Source: a virus
Taxonomy: Duplodnaviria; Heunggongvirae; Uroviricota; Caudoviricetes
Reading direction: 5' to 3' (one strand)
DNA: 64,000 nt
Virus record (IMG/VR): IMGVR_UViG_3300037484_000445
Coordinates: 323,863-387,862 of that record
Part shown: positions 5,276 to 54,004 of the stretch, piece by piece
How the letters are laid out: the number at the start of each line of letters is the position of its first letter
Numbering within the stretch: the stretch's first letter is position 1
Position numbers and translations under genes: made by a program
Notes under the pieces: generated by a model
What the model was told of the DNA's origin: nothing
The model's database searches: none
The model's input: only the letters and a program-made list of their open reading frames with translations

Positions 5276-5305
5276 TTAATCGCCTGTCTTGAATGTCCGT
5301 ATAGC
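5276..5305 (+). promoter_or_regulatory. Class I promoter upstream of non-coding region with solo CRISPR repeat
   Basis: TTAATC-N18-TATAGC. Confidence 0.6.
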
Positions 5306-5571
5306 CCAATGAAAGGGAGATGATCGCTTCAAAGCACCCTAGTAGCTTGCAGGTGTAACCCCTGCCTACCATCAGGCAAAAGGGAATTCCTGGTCGATTC
5401 GAACGGCCGCGATTGACCTCTGACGGTTGAAGTTCTTACGACAGCACCCTACGAAGGTGTTGAGTTACTAGCGTGCCTTGAGGTGGTCATCACGAAGATA
5501 ATCGCTTCAAAGCACCCAATCGATAGAGGTTCGAGCCCTCCGGGCTTATTCCCAACACGAATTTGAAGGCC

Positions 5572-5607
5572 GTCATCCTATGAACCGAGTCCTTTAGCTC
5601 TTCTCAC
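5572..5607 (+). CRISPR. Solo copy of the IscB array repeat
   Basis: GTCATCCTATGAACCGAGTCCTTTAGCTCTTCTCAC, 34/36 identical to the array consensus (crRNA sense on +). Confidence 0.9.
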
Positions 5608-5763
5608 CTCTGCTGTAGGGTTGGTTCAACAGTCTTCGAAAAGGTTTATTGCCTTTTCGGGAGTTGAAACGTTGCATAATTGTTTTCTCCAACAGAAGGA
5701 GAGAGCCCACCATCCAGGTCATGGCATACCCTGGATGGTGGGCTCTCCGATTAGAAAGACGCC

Positions 5764-43419: not shown

Positions 43420-43665
43420 CTACGAACCTTTGATCTCCTCAACGGATACCGGCGAACCCAATAGGGTTTCACCGCCTATCACAAACCGCTTGTCGGCAAA
43501 TAGATTGGACGCCGCCTCGTAGGCTATGTCGTTAACACTCTCGCCCTGGTTGACCTCAACCTCAAGAACGACCTGTGCCTTGCTCCCAACACGCTTACCT
43601 GAAAAGGCTAGGAATATATTGTAGGTGACTCGGTACCTCATAGGCATGTGATTATTCTCGATCAC
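43420..43665 (-). CDS. Hypothetical protein coupled to iscB
   Basis: GTG start overlaps the iscB TGA. Confidence 0.65.
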   Translation of the reverse strand: MIENNHMPMRYRVTYNIFLAFSGKRVGSKAQVVLEVEVNQGESVNDIAYEAASNLFADKRFVIGGETLLGSPVSVEEIKGS

Positions 43666-45089
43666 AAGTGGACTTCGTACCCACTAGTTCGCTCAACCAA
43701 GGTGAGCTTTCGAAACGTAATGTTGCGATCCTTGTCGGACCCAAAAACCCGGACTTGCATAGAACCCGAGGCCCTAGCCCCAACGACCCTAGCTAGAACA
43801 CCATCGGGAAGTCGAACAATGTCTCCCGTAGAGAAACCATGAGGCCGTTTGCCTAGCTCACCCCTCGACTTCTCAAGCTCACCCTTGGGATAGACTATCT
43901 CGGGCTTTCGTTGCCCTAAGCGTCCAGGGTCACGATAAAACATATGGCGTTTTCTCGGATGGCCTGGGCCAAGTTTGGCCTTAGGGAACCCGTAAGCATC
44001 GGTTTTCACCAGCTTGTGACTGCCACGCCCAATGCTCTTGATGAACAAGATCGGAATGTTCCAATACCGAATACGATCAACCTCACCCACGCAAAGGGCA
44101 TCATAGGCATGACCCTTAGGCACTCCTAGTCGCGTTCGATTCCACTTCGTTCTACCTCCGGTGCCTACAGCAACTTCAACTCCAAAGGTCTTCAGGAGAT
44201 CCCTCAAAGCCCAACGAGTCGAGTTCACAGCAGCGGCGTCCTTCAATGGAGCCTTCATCTGTGCCTTAATTCGGGCTAGGACTTTTGGCTTACCCTTGAG
44301 GAACTCCTCCAAAGGTCGATTGCTCTTCCTCAGATTACAGGGCCTGCAGGCTGTACATAAGTTGCTTACACGATCGCTGCCACCGCGGGACCTAGCCTCG
44401 ATGTGATCTAGCTCCAGAGGTACATCCTTGGCTTCACAATAGGCACACTTGTGTCCCCATTTTAGCAAGACATACTCACGCACTTCATAGCCGAACAAAG
44501 TGCCCTGTTGATACTCAACGCCTTGGATTTCAGCGTTCTCCAACTTTTGAAGGTCGAAGCGTACAAGCTCTTGCACTATGCGTGTAACAGGCACCAACTT
44601 ACTGAGACGTCTAACCCACGTCACGACGTTCTCGAGACGATTCCGAATGCTCGGTGCAAGCCAACCTTCTGGTTTGGCCCTGTGCTTGAACCTTCCACCA
44701 GGGCACTTCTCACGCTGCTTTTGATTACTAGATAGGTTCAACGGCGTCTTTCGCCGAAGACCTCCACAACGGTATCTCAAGTTGGCCGAACGGCGACGTC
44801 GGCGACACGCCGAGCGACTTTTCAGGTTGTCCCTTACCCTAGAACCCTTGTGCTCGATTTCAGCCAGGTATACGGGACGATCGTTGGCGACAACAGCCAC
44901 ACCCGTGTACTTCGATCCCGGATCCAATTTCAAGTCAAGCGGCTGCGTATGCTCTGATGTGAGCTTCTTGAGACGTATCGTGAAAGGCATACGCTTGACT
45001 ACTACGGCTTCACCACTCCGTAGAAGCTTGCGTGCCTTCTGGGGCTTGGCCGGCATCAAAGGCCTGCCTTTATAGTCTAAGCAAAACAC
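43662..45089 (-). CDS. iscB: IscB RNA-guided endonuclease (OMEGA family), CRISPR-associated
   Basis: PLMP domain (VFCLDYKGRPLMP), RuvC-I LKLDPGSKYTG, Arg-rich bridge helix RRRRRSANLRYR, GWLAPS, RuvC-II IVQELVRFD, HNH CAYC...LDHIEARSRGG...N...CN, RuvC-III GHAYDA, C-terminal GFSTGDIV. Canonical start would be GTG at 45089; an alternative in-frame ATG lies at 45470. Confidence 0.97.
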   Translation of the reverse strand: MFCLDYKGRPLMPAKPQKARKLLRSGEAVVVKRMPFTIRLKKLTSEHTQPLDLKLDPGSKYTGVAVVANDRPVYLAEIEHKGSRVRDNLKSRSACRRRRRSANLRYRCGGLRRKTPLNLSSNQKQREKCPGGRFKHRAKPEGWLAPSIRNRLENVVTWVRRLSKLVPVTRIVQELVRFDLQKLENAEIQGVEYQQGTLFGYEVREYVLLKWGHKCAYCEAKDVPLELDHIEARSRGGSDRVSNLCTACRPCNLRKSNRPLEEFLKGKPKVLARIKAQMKAPLKDAAAVNSTRWALRDLLKTFGVEVAVGTGGRTKWNRTRLGVPKGHAYDALCVGEVDRIRYWNIPILFIKSIGRGSHKLVKTDAYGFPKAKLGPGHPRKRHMFYRDPGRLGQRKPEIVYPKGELEKSRGELGKRPHGFSTGDIVRLPDGVLARVVGARASGSMQVRVFGSDKDRNITFRKLTLVERTSGYEVHL

Positions 45090-45096
45090 CCGGTGA

Positions 45097-45470
45097 GGGT
45101 GCCGTGGAGTTTCCTCTACGGCACCCTTCGGGTTTCCCCTGAGATTATCAGGGCAGCCTTGCGGCTGTGACGACGTATCAGGTAGCTGCCCAGTTACGTC
45201 ACCTCTAGGAATTGTATCAGAATGACCTTCAGGACTTGCGTCCGTCTGCTCCGCCCCGTTTCGGGATTGTTGTCTGCTGACAGAGCTTCGAGAGCCCGGA
45301 ACTGAGGAAGCATTCCGGGGTCTTATTGATATCGTTTCTGAGCACGCTTCACGTGGGGACTTGCTCGTACCACGTGATATCCTTGGACACCCTGTTAACG
45401 GATTTTTAGGTCCGTCTGAACCGAATCCTTTAGCTCTTCTCACCTCTCGCAAAGGCGTGTCCGTCTTCAT
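45097..45470 (-). ncRNA. omegaRNA-like scaffold with 5' anti-repeat (tracr-omega RNA)
   Basis: HEARO/omega-type motif CCCCGGAATGCTTCCTCAGTTCCGGGCTCT (45320-45291), CAATTCCTAGAGG, several hairpins (TCACGTGG/CCACGTGA, CAGCC-GCAA-GGCTG, GGGTGCCGT/ACGGCACCC), directly upstream of iscB. Ends are approximate. Confidence 0.85.
45417..45443 (-). ncRNA. Anti-repeat (tracrRNA-like)
   Basis: GTGAGAAGAGCTAAAGGATTCGGTTCA pairs with 27 nt of the minus-strand repeat (one G:U against the consensus). Confidence 0.92.
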
Positions 45471-45482
45471 CTGCAGTCCTTC

Positions 45483-45488
45483 TACACC
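45483..45488 (-). promoter_or_regulatory. Class II motif for the tracr-omega/iscB transcript
   Basis: GGTGTA 12 nt before the in-frame ATG at 45470. Confidence 0.6.
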
Positions 45489-45595
45489 GATCGTGACGTC
45501 ATCCGACAAACTATTTTCAGGTTCGAGAGTTTTATCGAGACCCCCTCGCAAACCTGATTGAATACCGTTGGAATCATTGGGGTCCTGAAGGGAGG

Positions 45596-46271
45596 GTGAG
45601 AAGAGCTAAAGGACTCGGTTCATAAGGTGACGCCGTCCTAATCGAGTTACTCACCAGGGACAAGGCGTGAGAAGAGCTAAAGGACTCGGTTCATAAGGTG
45701 ACACTCGTCCTCGTCGAGACCCCAGTCCTCCTCCTCGTTGTGAGAAGAGCTAAAGGACTCGGTTCATAAGGTGACTGGCCGTTCCGTTGTGATAGATCCA
45801 TTGGTAGATAGGTGAGAAGAGCTAAAGGACTCGGTTCATAAGGTGACTACTCAGTCTCAGTCTGACCCTTGAGGATGGCAGTAGGTGAGGAGAGCTAAAG
45901 GATTCGGTTCATAAGGTGACGGGGCACGACCTATAGCGTGTACTGGTAGGGGTGTGAGGGGAGCTAAAGGACTCGGTTCATAAGGTGACTCGTGCTTCGT
46001 GATCTCCCCGATTGGCGAAGAAGGGTGAGAAGAGCTAAAGGATTCGGTTCATAGGATGACGACCAACCAACGCTGTCATGGCTATCGTGTTGGCAGTGAG
46101 AAGAGCTAAAGGGTCCGGTTCATAAGATGACTGCTCAGTGTCACCACTGTTCTGGCAAGTTTGAGGTGAGAAAAGCTAAAGGATTCGGTTCATAAGGTGA
46201 CGAGTCTCCGACCACTGCGGTTCCAGCTCTTGTAGGTGAGAAGAGCTAAAGGACTCGATTCGTAAGGTGAC
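45596..46271 (-). CRISPR. CRISPR array, 10 repeats / 9 spacers
   Basis: 36-nt repeats start at 45596, 45667, 45740, 45812, 45885, 45954, 46025, 46096, 46166 and 46236; minus-strand consensus GTCACCTTATGAACCGAGTCCTTTAGCTCTTCTCAC; unique spacers of 33-37 nt. Strand inferred from the anti-repeat and promoter. Confidence 0.98.
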
Positions 46272-46300
46272 TGGGTACTGCAACATCTGATGGACTCGAC

Positions 46301-46789
46301 TCATAGGGTGGCCGGGCGAGAGAGCTCAGCCAACTTCCTATACACCGAGAGGTCACCGAAATACCTCGGAGGATACCCGCCCTCCAAAGTACTCCCCACC
46401 AAACCCCGCTCAATCAACCGCCTAAGCGCTTCCTTTACCTCGGCTTCCCGTTGCCCCCTCTCCAGGTCCTCGGCCGCGAATTGGGCCTCTATGGCCTCGC
46501 AATAGCCCTTGTCCTCGTAGTTGTCGTTAGGCGGTTGAATCCGCTCCAAGTACACCCGGTTCGTCCCGTACCAGTCCTCAGCCAAACCCTCCTCCCCCAC
46601 AGGACTCACCAGAACCTGGCCCAATACCCACCGGTCTACCTCGTCAGCAAGTATCCCACGGTCCTTCACCTCTGCCGCCATCACTTCGCCCAACACCCTG
46701 CGGACGTAGCCGATCTCTACGTCCGGACACATCGAATGAGGATTCTCAACCTTGCTCCAAATCAGCTTCAAAATGTCAGGTACTTGCAT
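46301..46789 (-). CDS. Hypothetical protein, possible C-terminal winged helix
   Basis: 162 aa; EVKEALRRLIERGLV. Confidence 0.7.
   Translation of the reverse strand: MQVPDILKLIWSKVENPHSMCPDVEIGYVRRVLGEVMAAEVKDRGILADEVDRWVLGQVLVSPVGEEGLAEDWYGTNRVYLERIQPPNDNYEDKGYCEAIEAQFAAEDLERGQREAEVKEALRRLIERGLVGSTLEGGYPPRYFGDLSVYRKLAELSRPATL
46341..46346 (-). promoter_or_regulatory. Class II motif upstream of the array
   Basis: TCGGTGTATA about 70 nt before the first minus-strand repeat, inside the upstream ORF's 3' end. Confidence 0.55.
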
Positions 46790-46805
46790 GACACACCGAG
46801 ACCTT

Positions 46806-47147
46806 CTAGCTTACCCTATGCCAACGATTTTTGGTCCGGGTAAATCCATTCCCTTTGGAACATGTGATGGACAGGGCGGCACTAACGCTATGTGGGTACT
46901 CGTCGAACCCGAACGTAATCAAACGATCTATGACTCCACGAGTGGTGAGGTATTCGCCTACACGAACGACAGATCGTATCTTAGCTATAATGGTCTTAGG
47001 TTTAGGGGTTTGGTGACGTTTTGGGCGGACCTTGGGTTTACTTTGGGCTTTCAAAAGGTCAAAGGCCTCTTTGAACAGGTCTGCTCCGTATTTGTCTTGG
47101 AGTGAGACTAGTATGTTGGAGAGGGTGGTAGCTTCTAGGTCGGGCAC
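46806..47147 (-). CDS. Basic hypothetical protein, HTH-like
   Basis: 113 aa. Confidence 0.65.
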   Translation of the reverse strand: MPDLEATTLSNILVSLQDKYGADLFKEAFDLLKAQSKPKVRPKRHQTPKPKTIIAKIRSVVRVGEYLTTRGVIDRLITFGFDEYPHSVSAALSITCSKGNGFTRTKNRWHRVS

Positions 47148-47698
47148 TTCTTCTTCCTCCTTAGGACTGGGAAGGTCGGTTTAGGTTTTTCGGGTTCAGG
47201 TAACGCGGGGGCTTTAGGTACCCTACTGACAGGGATCCTACTCTCAGGTAACACCTCAACAGATACTGGGTCTTTCTCAAGTTTTAAGTAGTGGGCCTCC
47301 TTTTCCTTCTCGTAGCTGGCTCTCCGCACTATTCTACCCTCTCTGATCAGGCTTAGAAGACTAGACTTGAGTCTAGTCTTGTTGATTCGGGTACGGCTCA
47401 GGATCCCGCGGAAACCCAAGTACTTGTCCGTAGGTAGGTTGGCTAGAATGATCTCATTCAACACACTTGGGGTCAGGAGGGAATCCCCAACAGGGGTACG
47501 GCAGTAGAGACGGACCCTGCGGGTACCTTGTTTGCTGGTGAAGCACTTCGAGTTACTTGACAGCAAGGTCCCTAAGTAGCCTATTAGGTCCACGGATTTT
47601 ATTGGGTATGGGGAGTCTCGGATCCTGCTGGCGATCACATTTTTCGAGATACATTCTCCGTCTTGGAATATCGAAAGTAGAACTTCTAGTGAATTCAT
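47135..47698 (-). CDS. Tandem winged-helix-like protein
   Basis: 187 aa; two helical HTH-like segments. Confidence 0.6.
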   Translation of the reverse strand: MNSLEVLLSIFQDGECISKNVIASRIRDSPYPIKSVDLIGYLGTLLSSNSKCFTSKQGTRRVRLYCRTPVGDSLLTPSVLNEIILANLPTDKYLGFRGILSRTRINKTRLKSSLLSLIREGRIVRRASYEKEKEAHYLKLEKDPVSVEVLPESRIPVSRVPKAPALPEPEKPKPTFPVLRRKKKCPT

Positions 47699-47713
47699 GC
47701 AAGAAAACCACCC

Positions 47714-48811
47714 TTACTTGTAGTGGACCATAATATCTGGGGAGCACTTGATTTGGTGACTTTGGGCGATGGTCTTACCTTCAAGGTGGAGTCTGAGGGC
47801 TGTCAGGACTCGGAACACGATTCTGTGTTTGGCTGAGGAGGATGGCTCCTCGTTGCGTTCTTTGCGTACCTTGTCTTCTTTGGCCTTACTCTCTAGCTCT
47901 CGCTTGATTACGGCGGATTTACCACCATTTCGATTCAGGTAGTCGAATAGCCGCTTCAGGGGGTCATTCAACTCTTCAGAGACGTTGGGGATAGTAATAC
48001 TGTAGAACGGGTCATACACTCGCTCTGAGTACTTTTTGTACGCGATCAACATGGCTGCCAGGACGCTAGATTCATGAATGATCTGTTTATTTGAGGCTGT
48101 TTTGCTCTTGTACAACCGAGCTAGAAACTCAAGAGCATCCTTGAATTCGTTGAATATGTCTGCGGTGTCTTGATCGGTGTTGGGTTGGTGTTTGTGTTTC
48201 AGCTCAAAGATCAGGCTTAGCGCTGGCCACAAGATACCTCTAGGTGGTAACTTGTCGTAGTCCACATCGATTTTACCGAGCATGCTAGCGTTATCGTACT
48301 TCTTCCTAGGGGTTTGGCCATCTTGACGAGCTATATCCTCTTCGGTCGCGTCAAGCAGTATATCGAAGATGGCATCGGAACCACAAACCAAGCAGGAGAA
48401 GCAGCGGTGCTGGCCGTTAACCAGTTTACCCTCTCGAAAGGTCACTCGGTCACTGGAGTGTCCCCACTGACCTTCTTTGTGAATTTGGACGAACCTCTTT
48501 ACGTTTGAAGCGGTCAGGGGGCGTTGGTTGGTTGCATTTACCTTCAGAGCTCTGAGTATGTTGAGCCTGGAGAAGGAAACTCTGTCCTTAGAGGTTCTTT
48601 TACCCCCGGTAGTGAAGACCAAGGGATCACAGTACTCAAAGGTGGGATTTTCAACCAACCCATCTTTCAAGAGTTTGTAGAGTGTGCCGGTCAGGCCTGG
48701 AAATATGAGATTCCATTCCGAAGCCCCATCGACTTCCCGATCAAACTTTATGGATGCGCCTCCGGTGCATTCGTCAACGGAGATTATCGTGATGGTCGAA
48801 TTCTTGGACAT
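47714..48811 (-). CDS. ParB/Srx-like domain protein
   Basis: NQRPLTASNVKRF...GQW...LVNGQHR. Confidence 0.7.
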   Translation of the reverse strand: MSKNSTITIISVDECTGGASIKFDREVDGASEWNLIFPGLTGTLYKLLKDGLVENPTFEYCDPLVFTTGGKRTSKDRVSFSRLNILRALKVNATNQRPLTASNVKRFVQIHKEGQWGHSSDRVTFREGKLVNGQHRCFSCLVCGSDAIFDILLDATEEDIARQDGQTPRKKYDNASMLGKIDVDYDKLPPRGILWPALSLIFELKHKHQPNTDQDTADIFNEFKDALEFLARLYKSKTASNKQIIHESSVLAAMLIAYKKYSERVYDPFYSITIPNVSEELNDPLKRLFDYLNRNGGKSAVIKRELESKAKEDKVRKERNEEPSSSAKHRIVFRVLTALRLHLEGKTIAQSHQIKCSPDIMVHYK

Positions 48812-48823
48812 AGAGATTCTCCG

Positions 48824-49312
48824 TTACCGGGTCCCGTCGACCATTTTGAGGTAGTTATGGGCGACCGATCGGTCGCTTGATAGTTTGACGTTTTTACCAA
48901 CTCGGACCAAAACCCCGAGTACTACGAGTGGTTTGATCACTCTTCGGATTAGGTCTTTCTTCCCCTCAGCGCGGAGAATAGATTCGATACCGGGCCTGCC
49001 TATTCCAGTTTTGTCATACACTGAGTTGTCGAGTAACCCTCGGATCAATAGACTGGAGTACCTCTTCATCTTTTCTTCAGAAATTCCGTCGTGATGGAAT
49101 GTCAGCCCTTTTGATTGTGACGACAAGTCTTGGTCGGACGGGTCGCAAACCCCTCGTTTGGTGGTAGTAAGGCTTGGGTTTTGACCCCTAGTCGCAGCCA
49201 CCACCTTGGTCAATTCCACCCTAGTTTGACGTAGTTCCTGTACCAGTTCCCCTAGTAAGGGGGGTAGGCTAATCACGGATTTGATAAATTCGAGCAGGTC
49301 TTGATCTCTCAT
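48824..49312 (-). CDS. Hypothetical protein
   Basis: ATG 10 nt after GGTGTA. Confidence 0.65.
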   Translation of the reverse strand: MRDQDLLEFIKSVISLPPLLGELVQELRQTRVELTKVVAATRGQNPSLTTTKRGVCDPSDQDLSSQSKGLTFHHDGISEEKMKRYSSLLIRGLLDNSVYDKTGIGRPGIESILRAEGKKDLIRRVIKPLVVLGVLVRVGKNVKLSSDRSVAHNYLKMVDGTR

Positions 49313-49473
49313 GGAGTTTTTGTACACCAGAGTAGGGCTCGCCAGCCTCGAAAAAATAGACTTAGCGAGGGTAGAATGGCCGCTCGGCCTAACGTGAATG
49401 TGCCAGTTGACACTGGTGAACAGGATGGGCCGTTCAGGCCCCGGGAGGTGATTCCGGTGTACTGTCATCGTAC

Positions 49474-50778
49474 ATGAACGAACTCATCCAACTCTTCGAA
49501 CGCCAGGTCGATTACATTTCACGTCGGGAGGGCCGAGGGCTGCTTCTCGCTGTTCCTCGTCTAATTCAGTTGGTCGCTTCGGAACCTCGCCTTCGTGCAA
49601 TAGCCAAGGATCTGGAGACTGAGTATGAAACTGCCCGCCAAGAGTACCTGACTACTGACACAAGCCTGGCCGAGAGGCTCCTACAACTCTGGCAACAGCA
49701 CGAAGGTTGGTTCACGGCTGCTTGGGATGCAGCCTTGGACGCCAGTGAACATGACGAATCCATGCGGTCACTCGGGCACCCAAGCAGCATCCAGCAACTT
49801 TTGACGAGCGAACGTAACCCGACACTTTCATCCGATGGATACAAGCACGAGCAATCCCTAGTCGAAATGGTCTTGAGCCCAATGGGAATGTGGCTTGCCA
49901 ACGTCAAGAGGCAATGCCAGTCGGACACTGACAAGCAGGAGTTCGACAAGTTTCAGAGCGCATACGACCAGATCAAATTTGACCACGACGTCGCCCAGCG
50001 AATAAGATGTGCGGTTGAGCAAGTCCATGCTGGAGCCGCCTGGAGCCGCCTCGTCCGTTTTGCCCAGTCTTTGATTCCACCGAAGACCGACGATCTTGAG
50101 TCGTACATCGCAACGATCTACGAGCTTAAGGTGGCAAATACTGCGTTGGACATAGACGTAAGATATGAGCACGAGAAGGGTGACTTGGCTTCCTACCGCG
50201 CAACCATTTTCGAAGCCCTCGGCACCTTTCGTGAGGAAATGGTGCTCAGGTTCGGGTTGCACCTTTCCCACCGAGCCCTCGTAATGCGGTTCAAGACGAA
50301 ATGTGAGCGGTTCATGGCTCAGACCCTCTTGGAGCGATGCAAGGACGCGAGTCGGCCCGAAGACATCCTTACTTCCGCGGCCGCCGAGTACCTCTTTGAC
50401 CAAGGGTTGAACCCGCTTTTCAATGCTCCAATCGTGACACTTCGACCCGACTTGTTCGATCCGTCCTTGCCCCATGCCCTCTACATCGAAGCCAAGCAGT
50501 ACAACGATGGCTCCCCCAAGACTAAGGTAGTGAGGGCAACGTGGCAGGTTTGGGACACTTGGAATCAGCTAGATGGTCAGCACAAGGTTCTGGAGGCCTT
50601 CTTGCTTGTCTTTCGTCGCGGAGGTTCACTCTTAACTTTTGACGAGTGCGTCCGGTTGAATGGACGAACCCTCTACCCGATAGTCGTGGACATCGCTCCT
50701 TCCAATGCAAAGGGATCATGTGCCAAGAGCAAGTCCATTCATATCAGTGGCGAAGAGCTGCTTCCTCAGCATGCGTGA
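49474..50778 (+). CDS. Helical protein with C-terminal PD-(D/E)xK-like nuclease domain
   Basis: 434 aa; RPDLF...LYIEAKQY; GGTGTA 12 nt upstream. Confidence 0.7.
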   Translation: MNELIQLFERQVDYISRREGRGLLLAVPRLIQLVASEPRLRAIAKDLETEYETARQEYLTTDTSLAERLLQLWQQHEGWFTAAWDAALDASEHDESMRSLGHPSSIQQLLTSERNPTLSSDGYKHEQSLVEMVLSPMGMWLANVKRQCQSDTDKQEFDKFQSAYDQIKFDHDVAQRIRCAVEQVHAGAAWSRLVRFAQSLIPPKTDDLESYIATIYELKVANTALDIDVRYEHEKGDLASYRATIFEALGTFREEMVLRFGLHLSHRALVMRFKTKCERFMAQTLLERCKDASRPEDILTSAAAEYLFDQGLNPLFNAPIVTLRPDLFDPSLPHALYIEAKQYNDGSPKTKVVRATWQVWDTWNQLDGQHKVLEAFLLVFRRGGSLLTFDECVRLNGRTLYPIVVDIAPSNAKGSCAKSKSIHISGEELLPQHA

Positions 50779-50904
50779 AGAACGCGGTCACAAGCATTCA
50801 GAGCTTGCATTCGACGGGTAGTAGTCTTCGGGGGACATGAGGTCAAAGAAGTCGTCTAGACGTTCGTGAGGAATCTCGACGCGGACTGTAGTCTTCTTAT
50901 CCGG

Positions 50905-51261
50905 TCAATCGTCAGAACTCATCGCTGGCGGCCGCCACTTGAGCTTGAGGGCCTTCTTCATCCACGGTTGAGTGTCAGCCTTGAGTAGCCCATCACCCAC
51001 TCGCTCAATGGCCTTGCATGCGGATAGAGCCGTCTTGTAGTAGCGGGTGTGTTTCCTTACGAGCGACCCGCCGTTGATTGAGTAGAAGTTCAAGAACCCT
51101 CGGTAGCCACGCCTAACCTTGTCAACGTACAGAGTGAGGCTTTGGGGCCAGGTGAGGATGGGGACGCTGCACCCAATAGGTCGGTGGGTCAATGAGGGCG
51201 ACTCCCACTTGTACTTGGTGCCCTTCGGTGGCAGGTACTCAATGCGGTATTCGCGGCTCAT
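50905..51261 (-). CDS. Hypothetical protein
   Basis: Probable start MSREY. Confidence 0.6.
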   Translation of the reverse strand: MSREYRIEYLPPKGTKYKWESPSLTHRPIGCSVPILTWPQSLTLYVDKVRRGYRGFLNFYSINGGSLVRKHTRYYKTALSACKAIERVGDGLLKADTQPWMKKALKLKWRPPAMSSDD

Positions 51262-51271
51262 TGGTAGGTTC

Positions 51272-51478
51272 CTACTCGTCGATCTCGGAGCAAAGCTTCT
51301 TGGACTGGGCACGGGCACGACGCTTATGAATACGGCGAATGGTGTCCTTGGCCCCATTGCGAAGAGCCTTGAAGGCACGTGCGGTGATGCTGTAGAAGTG
51401 GGTAGCTCGGCCGCCGTTGATACAGCCGACTACGTCGAGGTCGCCGGCTTCAATTCGGTTTAGTCCGTAGGGTTTCAT
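51272..51478 (-). CDS. Small basic protein
   Basis: 68 aa. Confidence 0.6.
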   Translation of the reverse strand: MKPYGLNRIEAGDLDVVGCINGGRATHFYSITARAFKALRNGAKDTIRRIHKRRARAQSKKLCSEIDE

Positions 51479-51696
51479 GGCTTTGGGTCCTTCATTCGAT
51501 GAGGTTCTGAGTCATGATAACCATTACGTACCTTCTTCCGCTTTTCTTAAGCCCTTGTGTCAGTGACACCCAGAAGGCCCTCAGACGCTCGGGGTGTCCC
51601 AAGGCTAGAGAGACCCACCCCCTGTGGCCAAAACGTCGTCAGAGACCATCCTCGCTCATCCGAGGGACTATCCCAGGGTTCTCTGAACCCAACCTG

Positions 51697-52257
51697 TCAC
51701 CGCGTAGGGTTGGATTGGTTCTTGCGAACCCACTCCCACACGTCGGGTCCAAAGACAGTGGCCATCGCCGCTTCGTAGACGTAGTGCGGTAGGTCTGAAT
51801 CCTCATTGGTACCCTCGACGTACTCCTTGAGACGATCTTGACAGCTTCGGACAACCCCGGACCAGTCTGGGTTCTCAAGGGGTTTGGGCACATCTCGTAG
51901 TCGGCAAGCATCCACGACTTTCTGGCACCCAGCCAAGTCGAACATACCCATATGGCAATCGTCAGGGGACAGGTTGAGGGCCGTGGCAAGCCAGGCGTAG
52001 GCGGCACCCCGGGACATGGACCCTTCTCTCCAGAGAGGGTCGAAGGCTGCATGGGCAGCCATCTTGGCCTTACGTAGGTCAGCATCGGCAAGACGCCCAA
52101 GAGGCGTCTCAGTGCCAGGATGACACCCTACGTAGGCCTTGCAGGGTGAACAGTGCCAGAACTTCTTGTCGTAGAGATCTCCCCGGTGAGGGTAGATGAC
52201 ATCTCCACCAACAAGTTTCGCAGGGGCTCCGCAGTAGGGGCAAAATAAGTCAGGCAT
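51697..52257 (-). CDS. DUF3268-family zinc-finger protein
   Basis: CPYCG...IYPHR...C..C.AYVGCH...PLGRLAD...AHAAFDPLW...CHMGMFD. Confidence 0.85.
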   Translation of the reverse strand: MPDLFCPYCGAPAKLVGGDVIYPHRGDLYDKKFWHCSPCKAYVGCHPGTETPLGRLADADLRKAKMAAHAAFDPLWREGSMSRGAAYAWLATALNLSPDDCHMGMFDLAGCQKVVDACRLRDVPKPLENPDWSGVVRSCQDRLKEYVEGTNEDSDLPHYVYEAAMATVFGPDVWEWVRKNQSNPTR

Positions 52258-52263
52258 GGTTTT

Positions 52264-52551
52264 CTATCGAATCAAAAAGTAGGTGGTGCCGGCGGGAACA
52301 AGGGTTTGGAATGCGGGGTGGCTCCCAGGTGGGAGTGGTTTTTGGGTGATGGCCTCGACGGACTGGACGGACTGGACCGGCGAAGTATCATAGGATCCCC
52401 TGTTCCTCGTAGAAGACAGGGCAATCCCCATGAGGCCTAAGGCGCGTGTACAGCGCCGTCCTGTCCGTCCCCGTTCCTCGTGGAAGACAGGGCAATCCCC
52501 GTGGGTAGCGGTTAGGGTAGCAATGGCACGGGAGAGTTCGCTGGCTAGCAT
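52264..52551 (-). CDS. Hypothetical protein
   Basis: GGTGTA 12 nt upstream; contains an out-of-frame 28-nt repeat. Confidence 0.55.
   Translation of the reverse strand: MLASELSRAIATLTATHGDCPVFHEERGRTGRRCTRALGLMGIALSSTRNRGSYDTSPVQSVQSVEAITQKPLPPGSHPAFQTLVPAGTTYFLIR
52402..52500. repeat. 28-nt direct repeat pair, period 71
   Basis: GTTCCTCGT(A/G)GAAGACAGGGCAATCCCC at 52402 and 52473. Confidence 0.9.
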
Positions 52552-53312
52552 TGATCTGGGACATACACCAAGAACCCCCTTGAAGCTCTTTGCTCCCTCA
52601 AGGCTATAGACCCTCTTCTAGAACACCCTCTTCGGTACGTAACCAAGGGGAGTAAGAAGTGATTGGGGCTTTTCTGGGAATTGAACAAAAATCTGTTCAA
52701 AAATCAGCGCTCTCAAAAGCTCCGTTTGCCCTCAAAACTTGCGAAGCCTACCCCAGGCCCACGGTTCGTCCTCTCCCTGGAATCAATGGGATGGGGCCGG
52801 CGGGGCGAATTCCAGCGTAGTTGGCAATACTCTGGAGAATTGGGCCAAGGGTCCTAATTTATCCCGGCCGACCGCCTTGTAGTTCTAACACCGCAAGCCG
52901 ACCGCTAATTATGGGAGAGTGTGGGATGAGGCTGTGGGTGTTACACTCCTAGTGTGAAGGTACACGGTTCACACTTTTTGAAAAATACACTGTGTGATTT
53001 TCTGAAAAATGGAGTGTGTGATCCGGAGAGGGCGAGGGCTTCGCCGAAGCCAGCTCGAAGGGGGAGCACACGGCATGCGAAGCCTGCCTGGCTTTATTGA
53101 AAGTGAGGGCCCCCGCTTGGCTACTCGATGGTTCCGAGGGAGAGGCTGAGGGGGGTCAGGACGATCCCCCTCGGGTGTGAGTAGACGGGAGCCCTCGAGA
53201 GCTACTCTACACCGGGGGGCGGTGGACGTAGATCTTTTTCTCGAGGGCCTCCACAAAATAGGGAGACCGCCCAGGTGAGGGGGATACCCGGACGGCCTCG
53301 AATCTGTCAGGG

Positions 53313-53348
53313 GTGAGGAGAGCTAAAGGATTCGATTCATAAAGTGAC
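53313..53348 (-). CRISPR. Solo copy of the IscB array repeat
   Basis: Plus strand GTGAGGAGAGCTAAAGGATTCGATTCATAAAGTGAC, 32/36 identical to consensus, in an intergenic region. Confidence 0.88.
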
Positions 53349-53435
53349 CCTCGAGTCTGACATTGGGGGGATGTTTGCCTGACACTAGCCATTACGGCTG
53401 GGCAAGGCGGGGGATAAGGGCTTCTTCAAAAAGAG

Positions 53436-53729
53436 TCAGCCTGAGATCCTTTTGGCGGCACGCCCCGACCAAGAATCGGCAATGCTGTGGACGCGGACGG
53501 TCACGGCAATCATCTCAGCGAGGGGCTTGCTCAGTAGGGTGTCCCGCAGAGTGGCATCCAAGAGAGTGTCGTGAAGGGCGAGGACGGCCTTGGCTTGGTA
53601 GGGGTAGACCACACGGCCCCGGATGAGTCTGGCACGCTTGGTGGCGGCTTCTAGCTCGGCGAGGAGGGCCTCGTGCTCGGGCTTGGGCGGCAGCATGAAC
53701 GTTCCACTGGCTCTTGGTTCCCCTGTCAT
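53436..53729 (-). CDS. Hypothetical protein
   Basis: Class I promoter at 53785-53756. Confidence 0.6.
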   Translation of the reverse strand: MTGEPRASGTFMLPPKPEHEALLAELEAATKRARLIRGRVVYPYQAKAVLALHDTLLDATLRDTLLSKPLAEMIAVTVRVHSIADSWSGRAAKRISG

Positions 53730-53866
53730 GGTCGTACCCCTTTGGTTGGCCCGGATAGATACGTGGGGAACGAGTGGTCCCTTAATGGGATTATATGAGG
53801 GGTCGGACGGTGGTCCTAATAGCAGGCAAGGCTTAAGGTTCGAGGCACTTTGGCCGTACTATATGC

Positions 53867-53971
53867 ATGGACGAAGCAGATCTTACACCGGAAGAAGAGA
53901 GTCTCCTAGCCGAGCTCGAAGATCAGGACGATTCTGAGGTCGTTGACAAGCGGACCTCAGAAAGGGCTTAA
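53867..53971 (+). CDS. Tiny acidic peptide (34 aa, not in ORF track)
   Basis: Class I promoter then MDEADLTPEEESLLAELEDQDDSEVVDKRTSERA. Confidence 0.5.
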   Translation: MDEADLTPEEESLLAELEDQDDSEVVDKRTSERA

Positions 53972-54004
53972 GCTTTTCGAGGGCCGCCTCGTATCTATTT
54001 ACAG

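Follow-up and report, generated by a model that had tools for sequence, protein, structure and literature searches.

The IscB-CRISPR locus of the phage genome

The window, the whole stretch of 64,000 nucleotides that was analysed, comprises bases 323863-387862 of an IMG/VR virus record of 451,925 bp, estimated to be 94% complete. It carries a CRISPR-associated IscB locus, and the following features of this locus are required for the analysis.

43662-45089, minus strand: iscB, 475 aa from the GTG at 45089, with a PLMP motif and RRXRR/RuvC and HNH domains
45090-45443, minus strand: tracr-like omega-RNA scaffold upstream of iscB, the first 27 nt of which (45443-45417) are the anti-repeat
45446-45453 and 45545-45552, minus strand: the two copies of the motif TTTGCGAG
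45596-46271, minus strand: CRISPR array with ten repeats of 36 nt, from which the repeat sequence stems

The translation of iscB contains the PLMP motif, matches the Pfam families RRXRR (8.5e-62) and HNH (9e-11), and shares 44-46% identity with proteins that bear the name “RNA-guided endonuclease IscB”. The anti-repeat was located through the whole-genome repeat scan as a sequence at 45408-45443 complementary to the array repeat. A partial match to HEARO/omega-RNA was obtained for the scaffold at 45291-45321 (E = 0.003, under the gathering score), and the Rfam search of the window gave no match that reached the gathering score. The scaffold is conserved in L016 and L018, which are more distant huge-phage relatives, and there the anti-repeat co-varies with their differing repeats. 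No cas1 or cas2 was seen near iscB. To judge by its sequence, the locus has the layout of the published CRISPR-associated IscB, in which the guide lies 5' of the repeat and the repeat is paired to the anti-repeat; an IscB-CRISPR system is in itself already known.

The motif TTTGCGAG occurs twice in the window phage, in L016 and in L018, just past the last array repeat and directly ahead of the anti-repeat, and could be a processing or start signal of the scaffold. A CGGTGTA motif precedes the anti-repeat by about 40 nt. Variation between strains has a hot spot around the IscB locus: the 25-kb contig of run X3 has 1,280 other letters in place of a 4.1-kb block beside the array (46790-50901), and 25 letters in place of a segment of the array itself (45706-46095). 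Arrays were compared between the window (45596-46271), L022 (15710-16871) and L026 (14425-14814). Spacers common to these strains are 89-97% identical, differing by substitutions, and carry 4-nt and 10-nt indels located exactly at the spacer end that abuts the repeat. These differences hint at drift, or at repeated breakage at that junction; that they are scars of self-cutting is speculative. Drifting array spacers may also mean that the whole system is drifting.

A solitary repeat between a promoter motif and a hairpin

Downstream of a small gene on the same strand, a single repeat is situated at a distance from the array, together with the features listed here.

53436-53729, minus strand: upstream gene of 97 aa from the ORF list; its class I promoter, TTAAGG-N16-CG-TATCTA, starts at 53785
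53389-53417, minus strand: promoter-type motif TTATCC-N15-CG-TAATGG with a 17-nt spacer; predicted start near 53385/53384
53349-53385, minus strand: sequence in the guide position, spanning about 37 nt between the predicted start and the repeat; an IscB would use the repeat-proximal 16-20 nt of it (53349-53368)
53313-53348, minus strand: solitary CRISPR repeat of 36 nt in crRNA sense, which agrees with the consensus at 32/36 positions and with array repeat 5 (45885) at 34/36
53296-53312, minus strand: two inserted C (53312-53311), followed by the 14-nt guide end in a second, imperfect copy (TGACAGATTCGAGG vs TGTCAGACTCGAGG), from alignment to the empty alleles
53254-53299, minus strand: terminator-like 14-bp hairpin (53299-53263), then CCUAUUUUG; predicted for the window and likewise for the empty allele L021

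The whole 452-kb genome was scanned with up to 11 mismatches against a consensus of the four perfect array copies. Besides the array and the anti-repeat at 45408-45443, exactly two dispersed copies were recovered, at 53313-53348 and at 5572-5607, so that the two solitary repeats of the original prediction both exist. Its description of the repeat copy at 53313-53348 was accurate. The copy has four mismatches to the consensus, all of which are transitions; “minus strand” is correct in crRNA sense, being the strand of iscB and the orientation of the array repeats; 7,042 bp separate it from the last array repeat (46271), in agreement with the predicted 7 kb; and the quoted guide is the reverse complement of 53349-53385. 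Shuffled sequence gave no 36-mer match within 3 mismatches, and the repeat is therefore not producible by chance. In the 884-bp spacer region 52552-53435 no second degenerate repeat was found, the next-best local alignment lying within the range of shuffles. The copy is thus a true solitary repeat, and a decayed mini-array was ruled out on the same basis. The all-transition pattern was considered as a sign of selection and rejected, since about 73% of the strain differences in run X1 are transitions (P approximately 0.28).

Regarding the promoter, the class I motif was checked as TTAANN-N16-CG-TANNNN. Genome-wide, TTAANN-N16-CGTA occurs 60 times and its N15 variant, with a 17-nt spacer, 24 times, compared with 2-6 copies each for spacings of 13, 14, 17, 18 and 19. 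An ATG follows the site by 4-6 nt in 12 of the 24 copies of the N15 variant, several of which have TAATGG or TATTGG as the second element. Both the excess over the other spacings and the abutting ATG in half of the copies argue that the 17-nt form is a real promoter subclass, to which, by its motif, the site upstream of the repeat belongs. The class I-like motif proposed earlier is therefore present, with a different spacing: TTATCC (53417-53412) and TAATGG (53394-53389) are separated by N17 rather than N16, which is 1 nt, not 2 nt, under the 18-nt class I spacing. By analogy with leaderless genes, transcription would start near 53385/53384. A scan for sigma-70 promoters and simple terminators found nothing near the site and did not call the 14-bp hairpin either; the window phage uses its own promoter motifs. 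The -35 element is TTATCC in the window phage, L022 and L029, which is degenerate (TTAT for TTAA), and the canonical TTAAGC in L021 and L026. The U-tract of the hairpin is weak. Both the promoter motif and the hairpin are also present in empty alleles, and the repeat is situated between the predicted transcription start and the terminator-like hairpin.

The 97-aa protein was found in 11 cluster members from many samples, and it matched no Pfam family. As the class I promoter of this gene is on the same strand, read-through provides a second possible route for expression of the guide and repeat. A small ORF expressed from the 53389-53417 promoter was rejected, since differences in the length of a C-run shift the frame between strains.

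Pairing with the anti-repeat

The original prediction was to fail if the mismatches abolished pairing with the anti-repeat. Instead, the duplex between the solitary repeat and the anti-repeat is predicted at -44.4 kcal/mol, compared with -45.0 to -52.3 kcal/mol for the ten array repeats and an average of -16.7 kcal/mol for shuffled repeats. Three of the changes are located inside the 27-bp duplex, where they convert a G-U into an A-U pair, produce a G-U pair, and introduce a C-A mismatch; the last weakens the duplex and is also present in array repeats 5 and 6. Pairing is thus retained at two of the three positions and lost at one, which is the chance expectation. It had been pointed out that such a dispersed repeat works only if the scaffold acts in trans. 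This constitutes no additional demand, since all array repeats except the last also require the scaffold in trans.

Occupied and empty alleles in sibling strains

Contigs of four public runs were compared over 45000-54000, and further contigs were collected via the 97-aa protein and members of its cluster. In crRNA sense, the following alleles were recorded.

Empty, L021: CATCC-CCAC-TGTCAGACTCGAGG-CCGTCC, present once
Empty, L022-L025 (including a 457-kb genome): as L021 but CCCAA
Empty, L029-L031: CCCCAC-TGACAGACTCGAGG
Occupied, simple, L026-L028: 38 nt (the repeat and CC) inserted after ...CCCCCCA and before CTGACAGATTCGAGG, without a duplication
Occupied, extended, window: repeat variant and right side as in L026-L028; 15 additional nt, ATGTCAGACTCGAGG, separate ...CCCCCCA from the repeat

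Both the insertion and its polymorphism can be observed directly. The repeat is absent from at least 10 related contigs of other metagenomes (L021-L025, L029-L031, and runs X1 and X5). The 12.7-kb contig of run X1 joins 53310 to 53367 and the contig of run X5 joins 53310 to 53364, the repeat being skipped in each. It is retained in the 25-kb contig of run X3, and the identical repeat variant is present in L026-L028, where the guide is 15 nt shorter than in the window. Comparison of L026 with L029 defines the inserted piece as 38 nt, namely the repeat plus CC. Since both occupied types carry the same four transitions, they derive from one common insertion. The window and L026 share a right-flank haplotype of about 280 nt, with one difference in about 20 variable columns, while their left sides differ and the breakpoint is located at the guide. 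A homing signature in these haplotypes was considered and dropped: the whole region is a recombination mosaic, and the shared haplotype therefore does not distinguish homing from ordinary recombination. L016 and L018 have too little synteny in common with the window to compare conservation of the site. The “distributed guide network” of the original prediction is thus overstated: there are two strain-variable insertions, of which the 53313 copy is absent from most siblings, and both are absent from the 457-kb sibling.

Other solitary repeats in the clade

Two further solitary repeats were compared with the 53313 copy.

5572-5607, plus strand, crRNA sense: solitary repeat (34/36), about 260 nt behind a class I promoter at 5276
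L018:12256-12291: solitary repeat of the 442-kb relative L018

The 5572 repeat has 2 mismatches and is in the opposite orientation to the 53313 copy. A 2-kb JGI contig (L020) carries a repeat identical to it and lacks 134 nt upstream, which results in a different guide. In the 457-kb sibling (L032) and in L033, about 330 nt of other sequence stand in place of the 5572 repeat. Upstream of this repeat there are T-loop-like hairpins (GGTTCGAGCCC, GGTCGATTCGAACGGCC) and a duplicated 17-mer, ATCGCTTCAAAGCACCC (window 5276-5760); a long perfect hairpin downstream, at about 5697-5750, is missing in L020.

In L018, the IscB of which is 60% identical, the solitary repeat lies over the stop codon of a 128-aa gene after iscB, so that its guide position is coding sequence. 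Its 23-nt pairing core is intact and all 6 mismatches are located at the ends, the calculated probability of which is about 0.001-0.02 under uniform decay. No solitary repeat was found in the 21-kb neighbourhoods of L016, L022 and L034. The three independent solitary repeats of the clade (53313, 5572 and L018:12256) are all in crRNA sense relative to local transcription. Such repeats recur in the clade but are accessory.

Guide sequences, their matches and a flanking motif

Compared with the other occupied allele, L026, the window has 15 extra nucleotides at 53349-53363, and the guide on this side shows the same kind of junction change as the array spacers shared between strains. In L026 the 5' guide would be about 22 nt long, behind the canonical -35. 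The repeat-proximal 20 nt of the window guide match the empty allele of L022-L025, including the 457-kb sibling, at 20/20 positions; one mismatch is present in L021, at the distal position 15, and two in L029-L031, at positions 12 and 15. The L026 guide, GGCAAACATCCCCCCA, matches both L029 and the allele of the window perfectly. Any insertion yields a guide that matches the empty allele, and these matches by themselves are therefore no evidence of function. The only other near-match of the guide in its own genome is the downstream duplicate, which differs at 5 of 20 nt (4 of 16 nt) in the window's own genome and L026, including position 7 from the repeat end, and is trailed by CCGTCC, as are the sibling targets.

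The sibling target of the window's own guide is followed by CCGTC and that of the L026 guide by CTGAC (ATGTC in the window); behind the targets of the solo-5 guide in L032 and of the L020 guide in the window stand GTGAC and ACGAC, respectively. NNGWC is thus located behind all four independent sibling targets, and the repeat itself starts with GTCAC. The chance that four random genomic 8-mers share any such three-position pattern is about 0.0014, for a motif that was read after the fact from four sites. Judged from these flanks, NNGWC may be the target-adjacent motif (TAM) of this IscB, or an insertion-site preference.

Searches beyond the sibling alleles returned little. Guides and array spacers gave no significant second match in their own 452-kb genome, where the best 3'-end match of the guide elsewhere is 11 nt and no partial complementarity to any promoter or other site was found. 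Two 13-nt repeat-proximal matches, from array spacer 7 and the solo-5 guide, were considered as self-targets and dropped, the random 13-mer background being 2.9% (P approximately 0.05). GenBank phages contained no match to the array or the intergenic region, and IMG/VR none for the guide 20-mer or the guide-plus-flank 22-mer. Three array spacer ends had no match in IMG/VR, and one had none in the species genomes. Spacer 2 gave 25 matches in Streptomyces and other high-GC genomes, which fall on a GAC/GAG-rich stretch and were treated as chance.

Proposed function and alternative explanations

The anatomy of the locus, with a promoter, a 5' segment of guide length, a pairing-capable repeat and a hairpin, fits a stand-alone crRNA gene with one guide, which uses the scaffold in trans against sibling strains. 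This is our leading explanation, put forward tentatively on the strength of these sequence features, and from it we infer transcription, loading and cleavage, as well as a biological role, in the following manner. One copy of the phage's own repeat, plus CC, entered a small cassette that already existed and consists of a promoter motif and a terminator-like hairpin. The RNA predicted from it, about 130 nt long, would begin with 37 nt of local sequence, continue with the repeat and end at the hairpin. The scaffold, made 8 kb away, starts at its 5' end with the 27-nt anti-repeat; with this the repeat would pair in trans, and the duplex would be loaded into IscB, possibly after trimming, with the repeat-proximal 16-20 nt serving as the guide. 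As the guide is the DNA upstream of the insertion, it matches the uninterrupted sibling allele. The phage's own copy is trailed by the repeat instead of the sibling flank, and the most likely job of the unit would therefore be to cut co-infecting siblings that lack the insertion. Such cutting would exclude the siblings, or would copy the insertion into them on repair from the occupied genome. The NNGWC flank common to the four targets would fit a TAM requirement. Several points stand against a functional guide, namely the TTAT -35, the weak U-tract, the C-A mismatch, the absence of the repeat from most siblings, which is expected if it is neutral or recent, and the changes in shared array spacers, which may reflect drift of the whole system.

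A less probable explanation, although one to be taken seriously, is that the repeat is a neutral scar, having left the array by illegitimate recombination or repair, landed by chance and persisted unused in some lineages. It would account for an occupied allele that is present in a minority of haplotypes, within a population that is a recombination mosaic and in which the window and L026 share only the right-flank haplotype. The 15-nt indel on the guide side between the occupied alleles, which is of the same junction type as those of the array spacers, the degenerate -35 of the window phage, and the lack of any target beyond the sibling alleles in its own genome, GenBank phages and IMG/VR are also in its favour. 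However, several observations are unexpected for a random scar: its location behind the promoter and ahead of the hairpin, the fact that all three solitary repeats are in sense orientation, the intact pairing core in L018 (about 0.001-0.02 under uniform decay), and the common NNGWC flank.

The solitary repeats might also be the smallest RNA-guided homing or guide-capture elements, in which a repeat of 36-38 nt is dropped beside a TAM-flanked sequence, the crRNA completed in trans cuts siblings without the insertion, and repair spreads the repeat; this we regard as unlikely. Quite improbable is a regulatory or processing element, in which the duplex of repeat and scaffold (for example as an RNase III site) would cleave or terminate a local early transcript, or the repeat would titrate the scaffold, with no DNA targeted. 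Its position at the head of a conserved non-coding region of about 830 nt, behind the early gene of 97 aa, and the location of the L018 repeat over the stop codon of a gene in the iscB operon would suit such a role, and a preprint (10.1101/2023.03.03.530964) describes stand-alone repeats that give cr-like regulatory RNAs; nevertheless, the guide has no partial complementarity to any promoter or site in the 452-kb genome (best 3'-end match 11 nt) and sibling strains manage without the repeat. An RNA anti-CRISPR that mimics a host repeat to poison host Cas proteins, a known strategy of solitary repeat units in phage genomes (PMC10651486, PMC11656645), is very improbable, because the repeat is that of the phage's own array and its 21-nt core was absent from all 185,579 species genomes of bacteria and archaea that were searched, and from every other IMG/VR contig.

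Comparison with known systems

The CRISPR-associated IscB known as DelIscB or “CasIscB” (Altae-Tran et al. 2021, cited in PMC12660989) shares several features with the window locus: the IscB measures about 475 aa, the gene is preceded by an omega-RNA-like scaffold that has the anti-repeat at its 5' end, the array is adjacent and runs in the same sense, the guide is located 5' of the repeat, and no cas1/cas2 was seen nearby. DelIscB works with a 16-nt guide, repeat, anti-repeat and scaffold (PMC12660989). One ncRNA locus beside the gene is described for it, whereas the window phage, which is a 452-kb carrier, adds single repeats 7 and 40 kb away that have their own predicted transcription signals and vary between strains. 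[quoted passage not shown]

Virus-borne mini-CRISPR arrays (PMC6858448; review PMC11656645) are likewise minimal CRISPR units with a guide that matches close relatives, for which exclusion of co-infecting relatives was proposed. They contain 1-2 spacers between two or more host-type repeats and borrow host Cas proteins. In contrast, the 53313 unit has one repeat only, of the phage's own type and with a core found in none of the 185,579 species genomes, it would be served by the phage's own IscB and scaffold, and its guide is local sequence instead of an acquired spacer. Racrs, or solitary repeat units (PMC10651486), share with it a single CRISPR repeat outside any array in a phage genome; they mimic host repeats as decoys, whereas the 53313 repeat matches the phage's own array and is absent from the prokaryote genomes searched.

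In the OMEGA elements of IS200/IS605, with IscB or TnpB and their omega RNA, the guide is also the DNA that flanks an inserted RNA gene, the element-free allele being the natural target and the occupied allele being protected. PMC10705468 describes their selfish spread via targeted cleavage and homologous recombination. The 53313 unit differs from these elements in that it has no transposase, transposon ends, nuclease gene or scaffold; it is 38 nt long, and the remaining RNA would be supplied in trans. A homing endonuclease gene of a large phage likewise disrupts, by its insertion, the site that is recognised, and an allele without the gene is cut and may undergo conversion when phages co-infect. 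For the 53313 unit, by comparison, an RNA would guide recognition, and just a repeat would move in the proposed conversion.

No description was found in the literature of dispersed single-repeat units for a phage's own IscB, or of guides made by insertion of a repeat, not a spacer. The locus provides one repeat in one promoter-hairpin cassette with two guides, beside empty sibling alleles, and a candidate TAM that can be read from four sites. These natural occupied and empty alleles make the idea of guides through repeat insertion testable. The locus bears on how guides are acquired in IscB systems without an adaptation module, and on the split of a one-piece omega RNA into crRNA and tracrRNA. 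If the unit is active, a 38-nt insertion arms the phage against close relatives, and insertion of a repeat can give rise to guides; an inactive unit is still a record of repeats leaving the array and of the speed at which such loci turn over between strains. If homing or guide capture were true, the unit would be a living intermediate between transposon logic, in which the guide is the flank, and CRISPR logic, with dispersed repeats and a shared tracr, and in a CRISPR-IscB system without Cas1-Cas2 a new guide would be made by dropping in a repeat, not by inserting a spacer.

The non-coding region downstream

The region 52552-53435 contains about 830 nt without a credible ORF and hardly differs from strain to strain. 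It may encode a long non-coding RNA or serve as a control region; an Rfam search of it gave nothing, and no scaffold-like sequence was found within it. A 24-nt tandem repeat is located at 52975-53022. A CGGTGTA “class II” motif occurs near 53225, and another ahead of the ATG at 52551. The 95-aa ORF at 52264-52551 is a strain indel: contigs in runs X3 and X5 skip 288 bases, from 52265 to 52554, and L022, L026 and L029 pass directly to a DUF3268 gene, without the 95-aa ORF.
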